Below, piece by piece: positions 1 through 17,331 of a stretch of 17,331 nt of DNA. Both the position numbers and the translations under genes were made by a program. The notes beneath the pieces are model-generated. The model worked only from the letters and a program-made list of their open reading frames with translations, searched no databases and had not been told where the DNA came from. How positions within the stretch are numbered: the first letter of the stretch is position 1; the number at the start of each line of letters is the position of its first letter. Origin of the DNA: a virus (taxonomy: Duplodnaviria; Heunggongvirae; Uroviricota; Caudoviricetes); IMG/VR virus record IMGVR_UViG_3300036790_000223, one strand, 5' to 3'.

Positions 1-756
1 CGTGGTCATGACGGCCGCTGGACTGGTGGTGACACCGGGATTCTGGCCGATGTCACCGGCGAGAAGCCGGGCCACGGGTTTGCCCCGGGCTCTGCCGAGC
101 ATGCTAACGCAGTGCGAGAGCTAGCCAACCACGTCGGTGATCGCTCACCCGATGCCGAACACGCCCTGCAGCGGGCTAGCGACGCTATCGACCGGGGTGA
201 CTTCACCCAGGCACGTGGTCACATTGCCGACGCGCACTACAACCTGCTGGCTGACCACGGAAGCCCCGAGGACGTCGCCGCGATTGACGAATCAGCCCGG
301 GGCCTGTCTCACCTGCACAGCACCCGCACCAGCAGCAGCCCTGGCACACCGCTGTCCCCGGCGTATCACTTTGGCACTAACCACCCGCTGGCCCATCCTG
401 AGCAGAGCAGCTCGGCTCCGCTGGCCAGTGCCAACCCGAATGCGTATGACCGCTTCCACGAGATGGCCAACTCGCCCACCGAGGCGGACATGTCCACCCG
501 GGGCGGAGTGACGCCGAGCGGCACGAGCTACGTCTTTGACGCAGCAGGGCGCCCGGTGGACATGTACGGGCGGACGGTCCCGGGTGTGGCTGCTGAGCCT
601 GCGCTGGCCCCAGGTACGCACATCCCCGCCGCGATGAACAACGAGTCGATGGCGATGGCTCGCCGGGCTGGATTGCTGGCTGCTGCGGGTAAGTCGGCCG
701 ACGAGCGCAACGATCCCGTGGTGGAGCGGCTGCGCGCGGCACTGCGTGCTACTTGA
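1..756 (+). CDS. Head-associated modular protein, 5' partial
   Basis: Frame 1 is open from base 1 (RGHDGRWTGGDTG...) to TGA at 754-756, so the ORF-track start at 112 is internal. It begins with the RGxxGxW tag also found in the portal, MuF and 15144 proteins. Confidence 0.75.
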   Translation, partial: RGHDGRWTGGDTGILADVTGEKPGHGFAPGSAEHANAVRELANHVGDRSPDAEHALQRASDAIDRGDFTQARGHIADAHYNLLADHGSPEDVAAIDESARGLSHLHSTRTSSSPGTPLSPAYHFGTNHPLAHPEQSSSAPLASANPNAYDRFHEMANSPTEADMSTRGGVTPSGTSYVFDAAGRPVDMYGRTVPGVAAEPALAPGTHIPAAMNNESMAMARRAGLLAAAGKSADERNDPVVERLRAALRAT

Positions 757-1078
757 TCCGCTCCATAGCTTCCAGGTGCAGCCGAGTGCGGCAGGTCGCA
801 TGCACCACGTAACCAGGACCTGAGCGCGGACCCTGAGAGTCGGCTAGTGCCTGCACCTTCTCGGCGTGCTCGATGCACAGTGGCATCGGGTTGGCCAGCT
901 GGTCACAGCAGGTTGGCGTCCAGATGGCCTGCTTCACGGCTTCCAGCCCGCACAGGTCAGTGCCGATGCCCTTAGGGGAGACGTTGAAGGCACACGTCTT
1001 GCCCCGGTCGTTGCTGAACGTCACCCAGCTCAGGGTCTCGGTGGCCGTGCTCATCGTTCCCATCCTTACGTCCCTCAC
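749..1078 (-). CDS. Cys/His-rich hypothetical protein (~101-109 aa)
   Basis: GTGA overlap with the upstream gene at 1075-1078; alternative ATGs at 1063 and 1054. Ends in TAG and overlaps the convergent + gene by 8 nt. Confidence 0.65.
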   Translation of the reverse strand: MRDVRMGTMSTATETLSWVTFSNDRGKTCAFNVSPKGIGTDLCGLEAVKQAIWTPTCCDQLANPMPLCIEHAEKVQALADSQGPRSGPGYVVHATCRTRLHLEAMERIK

Positions 1079-15147: not shown

Positions 15148-17331
15148 ACCGCCGGTTCACCACCGTGCCCGGTGACCTGGTCTGGCATGACGAGCAGGCC
15201 ACTAAGAGCTTCACCGAGGCGTGGGAGCATGAGCGGCGCAACCTGCGCGGCGAGTGGACCGCCGCCATCGACAACGCCCTGAAGGCAGTCCCTGAGGCTA
15301 AGCTGCTCAGCTCTGACCCCTCGCACGGGCACCTGGTCGCTGCTATTGGCAACCCGGCGACGGCTTCTCACGTGCTCACCTACGTTCCCGGAGTGGGTGA
15401 AGGTGGTGGCTTGCCCGGGGAGATGAAGCGCGCTAAGGCCCTGCGCGACAAGATGGACGCCGAAGGCAAAGGCTCATCGGCGGTGCTGCTCTGGCACGAC
15501 TACCGCCCACCACCCAGTATCCACGCAGCCTTGTCCAAAGAGGACGCCATTCATTCCTCAGCCCGGCTGGCGGCCTTTCAGCACGACCTGAAGTCCCGCA
15601 ACCCGCGTGCCAGCCATACCGTGCTGGGCCACAGCTACGGCTCGCTGGTGGCTGGGGAGGCAGCTCGCCGTCACGGCATGGACCCAGATGACCTGATTGC
15701 TATCGGCAGCCCGGGGATGGGCGTCCGCAGCGCATCGGGGCTGGGCATCCCAGTCAGCCACGTCTGGGCTGGTGCGGAGAGCGAAGACCCGGTCGCTCGT
15801 GCGGCGTACCTGCTGGCTCCGGACTTTGGTGGCAGCCCGGTCAAGCCTGCCTTTGGTGCTCATGTGTTCGGTGCTCAGGACCCCGGGGTGGCCTTCCCTG
15901 GCCGGATTCACGGTGGTGCGCACTCGTCCTACTGGGACGCAGGCAGCCAGGCCCTGGCGAACGTGGCCTCCATCGCCACCGGCAACTACGTCGCGGTCAA
16001 AAACTGGCATGACGCCTGGCTGCATGAGGCCCGTGGTGGCCACGGCCACTGGATCCACGGCATTGGCTCCGAGGAACTGGAGCAGGCCCGTGGCTACCAG
16101 GGCCACTACGAGGGTGTGGACACCTACATCCCGGACATGAAGCCAGCGCCGGGCGTGAAGGACCTGATGTCGGCTGGCCGTCCTGACGGTAAGGGCACCC
16201 CCGATGACCCCATCGACGTCCAGGGTGACCTGGACAAGGCGGTGCACCTGCTCCAGGCGGGCAAGAGCGTCCGGCTCAACCAGCCCGAAGAAGTAGCCGT
16301 GCTGGCTCAGAAGGTGAACCAGATCGCCACCAGCTGGGACAAGGGCAAAGGCCCGATGCCCAACATCAACTTTGGCGACGTGACCGTGAAAGGCACCAAC
16401 CTGTTCACGGCGCAGACACGCGGCATCCCGAGGGCGAAGATGCCGCAGCTGGCTGGCCCGGCGCAGCCTGGCACTAAGGCAGCTGACCTGGTGGGTGCGG
16501 GGAACTGGGCTGACCTGGCACCGGAGCTGCGCAAGGAGCTAGCCGGTAAGGGTGTCTCCATCACCGACGACGTCGTGAAGCCAACCCACCTGCGGGCTAC
16601 CCAGATGGACCTCAACGGTGCCTCGGTGGCGGGGATCGCCACTAAGTACCTGGCTGGCGACGCTAAGGTCCGCACGATGATGACCGAGCCACTGTTTGTC
16701 ACCCGGGACAACTACGTGCTCGACGGGCACCATCGCTGGGCCGCGAACATGGTGGTGGATGCGGCAGACGGCGTGATAGGTGACTCCAAGCCCATCAACG
16801 TGCACCGCATCAACATGGACATTGGTGCCATGGTTCCGTACGCTAACGACTTCGCCCAGAGGTGGGGGATTGCTGCTGTGTCAGCTAACGTCAGCCAGCG
16901 CACCGTGGTCAAGAACCTGGCCGAGTACTGGAAGTGCCTGTCTTGCGGCTGCGGCAGGCCGCACGACGATCACGGTGACCACCGGCACATCACCCTGGAA
17001 GATGTGGAAGCAGCAGGAGACGCAGCTAAGCTGCCCGCTGGCCAGGCAGCCGCCAACATCGGGGATCACTTCCGCACGGCTCCTGATGCCGACGATAAGC
17101 CAGCCGCTAAGGGCATGCCGGAGTCGGTGGAGCAGCTGACCCCGGACGTGATCGCTAAGGCAAACGCCATCGTGGGTGAGATCAACAAGCGAGGCAACGC
17201 CCAGACTCTGCGTGATTACTGGACCGGTCACGGTCACGGTGGCCCCACTCACCACGCCTTTGAGCACGCCATCGCCTGGGGTACCGGGGGTGACTTTATG
17301 CGCTGCGTGGCCCAGCTGACCGCCCACGGCA
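15144..17331 (+). CDS. Multidomain protein, 3' partial: alpha/beta hydrolase, ParB-like domain, Cys/His motif, WGTxGDF domain
   Basis: GTGA-coupled start; frame open to the window end and so absent from the ORF track. TYVPG, GHSYG (Ser at 15633), IGSPG, EDPV, AHSSYW; YVLDGHHRW (16722-16736); CLSCGCGRPHDDHGDHRHIT; GNAQTLRDYW...IAWGTGGDFMRC. Confidence 0.85.
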   Translation, partial: MNRRFTTVPGDLVWHDEQATKSFTEAWEHERRNLRGEWTAAIDNALKAVPEAKLLSSDPSHGHLVAAIGNPATASHVLTYVPGVGEGGGLPGEMKRAKALRDKMDAEGKGSSAVLLWHDYRPPPSIHAALSKEDAIHSSARLAAFQHDLKSRNPRASHTVLGHSYGSLVAGEAARRHGMDPDDLIAIGSPGMGVRSASGLGIPVSHVWAGAESEDPVARAAYLLAPDFGGSPVKPAFGAHVFGAQDPGVAFPGRIHGGAHSSYWDAGSQALANVASIATGNYVAVKNWHDAWLHEARGGHGHWIHGIGSEELEQARGYQGHYEGVDTYIPDMKPAPGVKDLMSAGRPDGKGTPDDPIDVQGDLDKAVHLLQAGKSVRLNQPEEVAVLAQKVNQIATSWDKGKGPMPNINFGDVTVKGTNLFTAQTRGIPRAKMPQLAGPAQPGTKAADLVGAGNWADLAPELRKELAGKGVSITDDVVKPTHLRATQMDLNGASVAGIATKYLAGDAKVRTMMTEPLFVTRDNYVLDGHHRWAANMVVDAADGVIGDSKPINVHRINMDIGAMVPYANDFAQRWGIAAVSANVSQRTVVKNLAEYWKCLSCGCGRPHDDHGDHRHITLEDVEAAGDAAKLPAGQAAANIGDHFRTAPDADDKPAAKGMPESVEQLTPDVIAKANAIVGEINKRGNAQTLRDYWTGHGHGGPTHHAFEHAIAWGTGGDFMRCVAQLTAHG

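Follow-up and report, generated by a model that had tools for sequence, protein, structure and literature searches.

Head genes of the uncultured tailed phage described here share a tryptophan-rich peptide header of ~20 residues that recurs in front of otherwise unrelated protein modules. The stretch analysed, hereafter the window, comprises the 17,331 nucleotides of IMG/VR virus record IMGVR_UViG_3300036790_000223 (Caudoviricetes); its G+C content is 65%, and its long plus-strand open reading frames (ORFs) make up a phage head module. Judged from the sequences, each add-on module bears one header at its N-terminal edge, both when it is fused to an anchor protein and when it is encoded as its own gene. 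The genes appear to be members of the known phage polyvalent proteins, of which the shared header would be an undescribed feature. Polyvalent proteins are believed to enter the host cell together with the phage DNA and to disarm that cell. We tentatively propose, with a probability of about 45%, that the header is a combined loading and processing signal of capsid-delivered polyvalent proteins, comparable in function to the capsid-targeting sequence of phage T4.

An initial annotation of the window had described five copies of this peptide, written as K-x(n)-AWxHExRxxxGxW, and had taken them for a capsid-targeting and/or prohead-protease processing signal. The translations at these places are identical to the peptides it quoted, giving four full copies and one that is cut by the window start and retains only its second half. 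The four full copies were recovered in translation, by regular expression and by profile.

Positions 1-21, plus strand: C-terminal half of a header copy (RGHDGRW), its front half cut off by the window start; what remains agrees with the second half of the consensus.
Positions 7503-7559, plus strand: header copy TKDWRNAWRHEIRGAHGEW in the C-terminal extension of the portal protein (amino acids 732-750).
Positions 14260-14310, plus strand: header copy TKDLAWEHELRGAHGQW between the MuF domain and an ADP-ribosyltransferase (ART)-like module (amino acids 211-227).
Positions 15201-15257, plus strand: N-terminal header copy of the polyvalent protein P0004 (amino acids 20-38), ahead of Abhydrolase_8.
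Positions 15996-16052, plus strand: header copy of P0004 between Abhydrolase_8 and a DGHHR-motif domain (amino acids 285-303).

The strict pattern W.HE.R(2-4)G.W had four matches in a six-frame scan, all of them on the plus strand within long ORFs and none in any other place, and no match appeared in 300 shuffles of the window. With a profile built from the copies, each copy scored 40-46 bits (E 1e-11 to 1e-13), and no other ORF had an E below 3.

A profile search beyond the window, which the initial annotation had proposed as a check, found the header in 87 protein clusters, all metagenomic (1.84 billion cluster representatives, E<=1e-3), and in IMG/VR 51 tag-bearing loci or contigs hold 128 copies of the header, or tags. 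The ten clusters that were looked up are metagenomic singletons. Matched proteins are mostly 500-1800 amino acids long with two to five copies, and an iterated profile yielded 201 copies in the 87 clusters. In 56 of 86 proteins the first copy begins no more than 50 amino acids from the N-terminus; in 90% of proteins the last is at least 168 amino acids from the C-terminus, and the spacing from copy to copy has a median of ~300 amino acids. In every case the header stands ahead of a module of domain size. In three longer contigs from a different lineage (Mu-type portal, PF25209 capsid) several neighbouring genes are tagged, and these lie between the portal/MuF genes and the capsid gene, in the order terminase, portal, MuF, tagged genes, capsid. 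Among 50,697 deposited phage genomes there was no header match at E<=10. In deposited phage genomes the window portal had no DNA match, MuF had just remote matches in Arthrobacter phages, and otherwise the hydrolase domain alone matched, to 'polymorphic toxin' genes of Mycobacterium abscessus prophages. No portal relatives were found in bacterial genomes, and none of the first 120 DNA-pattern matches sampled there was a genuine header.

By its conservation pattern the header is self-contained and has three parts: a lineage-specific front junction, a universal core and, usually, a Gly/Ser/Ala/Pro linker. The universal core reads GW.DAW.HE.R[GD].HG[ER]W, and its W, E, R, G and W are conserved at 96-100% over 141 copies. 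The logo as a whole is T-I-S-x-Q-L-x-L-x-G-W-[RH]-D-A-W-x-H-E-[L]-R-[GD]-x-H-G-[ER]-W-[VTI]-x-G, and the residues behind it are rich in Gly, Ala, Ser and Pro. The front junction is hydrophobic-T/V/A/S-K in the window lineage and L-E/D-L-x-G in most other lineages. Because the front Lys is confined to the subfamily that includes the window, the K-x(n) of the annotated motif holds within this lineage and fails as a general feature. Multi-copy proteins (n=43) carry the Lys in every copy (6), in none (36) or in some (1), a concordance that was equalled in 0 of 20000 permutations and that is consistent with reading by a lineage-specific factor, for example a protease of the phage itself. A variant core, FNP.E.R...G.W (aromatic-N-P-x-E-x-R...G.W), counts as the same header because it stands in for the standard core before homologous hydrolases and also before DUF7178 domains.

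In two AlphaFold2 models the tags had predicted local distance difference test (pLDDT) values of 42-57, compared with 82-95 for the hydrolase core and 80-97 for the zincin. Since varied modules follow the tag and its pLDDT is low, it is not a folded part of one adjacent domain family, an outcome that the initial annotation had set against its own proposal and that we looked for.

The genes of the window in which the headers lie are as follows.

Positions 1-756, plus strand: ORF open at its 5' end, with the truncated header copy at its start; its other 244 amino acids have no family match.
Positions 5310-8081, plus strand: portal gene P0002 (923 amino acids), with portal domain, Pro/Gly/Ala-rich linker, header, then a coiled-coil and hydrophobic hairpin module.
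Positions 8078-8893, plus strand: 271-amino-acid gene carrying a second header type (tagB), with a C-terminal hydrophobic hairpin at amino acids 210-255.
Positions 9026-11392, plus strand: polyvalent protein gene P0005 (788 amino acids), with an N-terminal DGHHR (ParB/Srx-like motif) domain, tagB, a middle part without a family and a C-terminal zincin-like metallopeptidase.
Positions 13630-15147, plus strand: MuF gene P0003 (505 amino acids), with MuF at amino acids 63-167, header, and a probable ADP-ribosyltransferase at amino acids 231-505.
Positions 15144-17330, plus strand: polyvalent protein gene P0004, open at its 3' end (at least 729 amino acids), with header, Abhydrolase_8, header, DGHHR-motif domain, a Cys/His motif and the start of a WGTxGDF domain.

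Pfam and PHROG domain limits in the portal, the MuF gene and P0004 confirm that the copies sit at domain boundaries. The portal domain of P0002 spans amino acids 80-508, and behind the portal header a hydrophobic stretch has Kyte-Doolittle values of at least 1.6 across amino acids 837-873. The MuF domain of P0003 scores 29.2 bits against a Pfam cut-off of 29.6 and also matches 13 PHROG head-morphogenesis families; the ADP-ribosyltransferase match behind its header is weak (PF03496, E 0.02, under the Pfam cut-off). The next gene downstream overlaps the MuF stop codon and encodes another polyvalent protein, P0004, which joins at least two unrelated domains, Abhydrolase_8 (amino acids 58-223, E 1e-28) and the DGHHR-motif domain, to further motifs. 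The latter domain had been called ParB-like; it had no Pfam match even at E<=5, and the DGHHR motif is the whole basis of that label. No integrase was found within the window.

A tRNA gene with anticodon CTA (an amber reader, labelled tRNA-Pyl by ARAGORN) lies between the head-module genes on the minus strand (11920-11992). Amber read-through by this tRNA-CUA as a source of altered tagged ORFs was ruled out, because all five tagged genes that end within the window stop at TGA.

Beyond the window, modules were scored by local profile searches and Pfam. Those found after tags include Abhydrolase_8, DUF7178, ART-like, DGHHR, zincin, PI3K-like kinase, NUDIX and hydrophobic-hairpin modules, among others. 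DUF7178 (PF23802) is the commonest, with 38 matches (P0011, P0012, P0019 and 35 others; loci L008 and L009); it is often preceded by the FNP variant, and in tag-scored proteins 34 of 35 complete DUF7178 domains lie 25-43 amino acids behind a tag. ART-like modules follow tags in 17 cases, the window-type zincin in 14 proteins, PI3K-like kinases in 12 cases and Abhydrolase_8 in 10. MuF (8 proteins) and portal (3 proteins) have no tag upstream; both stand at untagged N-termini. DUF7178 was also considered as an obligate partner or receptor of the header and rejected, as it is absent from the window and from a 64-kb tag-bearing relative; a literature search found no paper that mentions this domain.

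The second header type, tagB, occupies both genes between the portal and MuF genes of the window.

Positions 8303-8365, plus strand: tagB copy VKVGKEGYVHGWKCVRPPCGK in the 271-amino-acid gene.
Positions 9758-9820, plus strand: tagB copy in P0005, behind the DGHHR domain.

Here tagB reads VKVGxEGYxHGWxCVRPPCGK, and its general pattern is [TV]-K-V-G-[PK]-x-G-Y-[IV]-H-G-W-[IK]-[CY]. The extension VRPPCGK, together with further His residues in the window lineage, may form a zinc knuckle. Elsewhere tagB was found at L001 8985-9017, in the portal ORF of L056 (2994-5882, minus strand) and in six tag-bearing clusters (P0016, P0038, P0041, P0050, P0087, P0093). In the portals of L001 and L056 it stands at the position that the tag has in the window portal, and in the window lineage its front is hydrophobic-x-K, as in the tag and in a header found on a protease-scaffold protein (below).

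Four relatives of the window portal were found in IMG/VR. The closest, L001, has a portal that is 83% identical, in which tagB precedes a small domain and hydrophobic hairpin; in the window these two make up a gene of their own. A 1459-amino-acid protein of L001 has three tag copies, and its chain runs MuF (split by an intein), Cys motif, tag, zincin-like module, tag, Abhydrolase_8, tag, then a helical region and a PI3K-like kinase. From the arrangement of portals and genes in L001 and the window it follows that modules are shuffled at headers and that two header types fill one slot. The other three relatives (L002-L004) have portals 60-65% identical and no tags; in L003, the one examined in detail, portal, ParB and MuF are fused and a cargo chain is lacking.

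Two inteins lie in the closest relative. One (L001 10992-15371, P0007, amino acids ~135-425) interrupts the conserved PPAH..CRC motif of MuF, and the window MuF is without it; the other (L010 267-2132, P0098) interrupts the WGTxGDF domain, whose start is also encoded at the 3' end of the window's last ORF. In that ORF, P0004, the DGHHR-motif domain is followed by a CLSCGCGRPHDDHGD motif and the start of a YWTGHGHGG...WGTxGDF domain, and both end motifs sit elsewhere in L001, in the MuF polyprotein and in a separate 621-amino-acid gene.

A variant of the header, LK[SA][YF]NPDQPRG..GEF, is found on prohead protease-scaffold fusions.

L010 2315-5932: protease-scaffold fusion P0099 of the closest relative.
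L046 10079-13858: homologous protease-scaffold fusion.

The protein of L001's phage (1205 amino acids) has LKSYNPDQPRGAHGEF as its N-terminus, and the L046 homologue begins with the same variant. In both, the header is followed by a Ser/Thr/Ala-rich and coiled-coil extension, ~190 amino acids in P0099 and longer in L046. Protease-scaffold proteins of the tagless relatives are without this extension, and the L003 homologue opens directly with the protease domain. Amino acids 200-364 of the protein from L001's phage gave weak matches to head-maturation-protease PHROGs (E 2e-4 and 7e-4). The predicted protease-scaffold is a third class of head-interior protein with the header, in one lineage only, and its header variant fits a capsid-interior signal.

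Probable major capsid proteins were recognised at L010 5969-7924 (P0100, amino acids ~110-130), L002 15240-15740 and L003 17579-19639. They share [VL]-x-K-[SG]-[LM]-x-P-x-F-x-x-Q-F-G-x-F just before a conserved core, a stretch that may be a maturation cleavage region; in L001 it reads KSLNPNF, reminiscent of KSYNPDQ in the protease header.

In the reading that we favour, the core would serve as a docking peptide that keeps or recruits its module among the proteins enclosed in the procapsid, and the header would also mark a cut position at or near the front junction. The cutter would be the prohead protease or a zincin metallopeptidase carried in the same proteins, and enzymes and membrane modules would thereby be released singly inside the head and could exit with the DNA. 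A combined signal is favoured because neither loading nor cutting accounts for every copy: modules behind portal or MuF are in the head already and would require release, not targeting, and standalone proteins that start with the tag need loading rather than separation, since nothing lies ahead of it. Of the signal proposed in the initial annotation, what stands is a peptide that is independent of the fold behind it, marks the start of add-on modules and recurs in head modules; its K-x(n) part is a lineage trait.

Several observations weigh against a combined signal. For modules already tethered in the head through portal or MuF a targeting signal is superfluous, and N-terminal copies, such as the tag at residue 2-3 of P0074, have nothing to be cut from. 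Phages with dissimilar portal, MuF, capsid and protease have near-identical cores, which counts against a lineage-specific structural receptor. Moreover, the evidence from the protease header comes from a single lineage, and the zincin-like module of L001 reads HQMGH (P0007, 10992-15371, amino acids ~655-660), so that the catalytic Glu is absent and the module may be catalytically inactive.

The question of a receptor can be narrowed. By jackhmmer, the portal, MuF, capsid and protease of the window lineage have no detectable similarity to those of the L008/L009 lineage, for whose head proteins PHROGs and the protein atlas offered nothing useful by way of names, and the header core is nearly identical between the two lineages despite these dissimilar head proteins. 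This dissimilarity weakens the case for any of these four proteins as a conserved receptor. Because the core is so constant where the head proteins are not, the reader of the tag would either travel with the cargo, as the zincin or the tags themselves, or be something other than a lineage-specific structural protein. A bolder version, which we consider unlikely, is that the core is a universal and self-sufficient capsid-cargo tag whose receptor (other headers or the zincin) travels along. If it were true, any protein with a ~20-amino-acid header would be loaded, released and injected, and the free exchange of cargo among lineages would be explained.

Alternatively, the header could be a recognition and cleavage site of the zincin and nothing else, with loading left to the anchors and to neighbouring tags. 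The window holds an intact zincin: the C-terminal domain of P0005 (~10703-11389) has HELGH and a conserved E..AELW and aligns with 10 homologues. A homologue was modelled by AlphaFold2 with pLDDT 80-97, and its best fold matches in the Protein Data Bank (PDB) were Zn metallopeptidases and anthrax lethal factor, although these matches were weak (E 0.01-0.1). HExxH occurs in 60 of the 87 tagged clusters and in 31 of the 37 proteins of at least 1000 amino acids, against a chance expectation of ~2 in 79,832 residues. Across the 51 IMG/VR loci its density is 0.52 per 1000 amino acids in tagged ORFs versus 0.06 in other same-strand ORFs, an enrichment of ~8-fold. An enzyme and site that travel together would account for a constant core across phages with unrelated structural proteins, and autoprocessing by such peptidases is predicted in the main text of Iyer et al. 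(PMC5512222). The co-encoded zincin is thus, as a candidate for the cutting enzyme, at least as good as the prohead protease. As the sole function of the header, however, zincin cleavage is doubtful. Many standalone proteins start with the tag, including the zincin-only P0057, and one has no residues before the core; the zincin of the closest relative reads HQMGH; a header variant stands at the N-terminus of the protease-scaffold; and the front junction varies by lineage while zincin clades are not obviously in step with it. Structure prediction was uninformative: a complex of the window-type zincin, Zn and a 50-amino-acid header segment scored 0.00 in a run that had no controls, gives no verdict and is evidence neither way, and an AlphaFold2 model of a natural tag-linker-zincin protein had a confident zincin, a tag of pLDDT 42-52 and no sign of docking in cis.

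The converse, that the header is a docking or co-assembly peptide which stays uncut and binds a shared receptor or other headers before the shell closes, would explain the N-terminal position in 56 of 86 proteins, the presence of headers on portal, MuF fusions and protease-scaffold, and the very high conservation of W, E, R, G and W, which is typical of a binding motif; persistence across unrelated structural lineages would fit if the tag were its own receptor or had one that travels along. We nevertheless regard docking without cleavage as decidedly unlikely, as it would require a binding partner, uncut proteins of at least 1500 amino acids with five modules would need to exit via the tail, and the lineage-specific junction is left without explanation.

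An action after injection, with the header binding a conserved host hub or serving as a host-protease site and having no role in head assembly, could account for the near-identical core across unrelated head proteins as the mirror of a conserved host target, and all tagged modules look like host-directed enzymes; it is very unlikely given the header variant on the protease-scaffold, which is not an effector, the confinement of tags to head-module genes and the lack of tags among the 120 sampled bacterial-genome matches. Equally improbable is a passive joint, an in-frame recombination cassette or spacer for module swapping that itself plays no biochemical part: relatives have clearly exchanged modules at headers, and genes split and fuse exactly there, but the DNA of seven header copies has a mean column identity of just 64% with synonymous differences, which places the conservation at the level of protein, and several residues are invariant over 141 copies, as a spacer would not require.

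The combined loading and processing signal that we favour invites comparison with known systems. The T4 capsid-targeting sequence is an N-terminal leader of ~10 amino acids on IPI-III and Alt that is removed by the gp21 prohead protease, and gp21 sites have the form L/I-x-E, which the header consensus does not resemble. Common to both would be a short leader on otherwise unrelated head-interior proteins, with loading and proteolytic removal (the latter two proposed here); the T4 leader is only N-terminal, whereas the header is also internal, as most of its copies are, with up to five copies per protein. The likeness would be one of function only, probably with no relationship in sequence or in protease family; the head-maturation protease of the related phage, to judge from its sequence motifs, would be HK97-type rather than gp21-type. 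Encapsulin cargo-loading peptides, short and either terminal or repeated in a disordered region, dock diverse enzymes inside an HK97-fold shell. They resemble the header as short conserved peptides on diverse enzymes bound for a shell interior (again proposed here), but have no sequence relation to it, and the capsid families of tag-bearing phages differ among themselves. The MuF polymorphic toxins (Jamet et al. 2017, PMC5576092) have an N-terminal MuF and a variable C-terminal toxin-like domain, as the gene at 13630-15147 may have with its MuF and ART-like module; here, in contrast, MuF is one of several anchors, and standalone tagged proteins exist.

The closest likeness in architecture is to the polyvalent proteins, which in the main text of Iyer, Burroughs, Anand, de Souza and Aravind (2017, PMC5512222) string unrelated effector domains (ART, hydrolase, ParB-like, kinase, Nudix) into a single polypeptide, with zincin modules, association with MuF and genes beside head genes; those with zincins are predicted there to be packaged and autoprocessed. 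One such protein of 2811 amino acids (gp47) is abundant by proteomics in phi24B virions (bioRxiv 10.64898/2026.04.10.717836). The window likewise has multi-domain proteins, a zincin with HExxH and a downstream Glu, and genes beside portal and MuF, and its gene order recurs in three other contigs. What differs is the conserved ~20-amino-acid header, with a second type, before every module and also on portal and protease-scaffold. A term search of the main text of PMC5512222 found no shared inter-module header peptide, and other full-text literature searches found no description of the header.

Looking forward, a header before every module gives a testable handle on how dozens of unrelated modules are loaded into capsids and separated from one another. 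It predicts the places at which processing sites can be sought in virion proteomes, and it supplies a sequence rule for spotting capsid cargo in metagenomes. Should the header prove enough for loading, it would offer a compact tag with which selected proteins could be packaged into phage heads.

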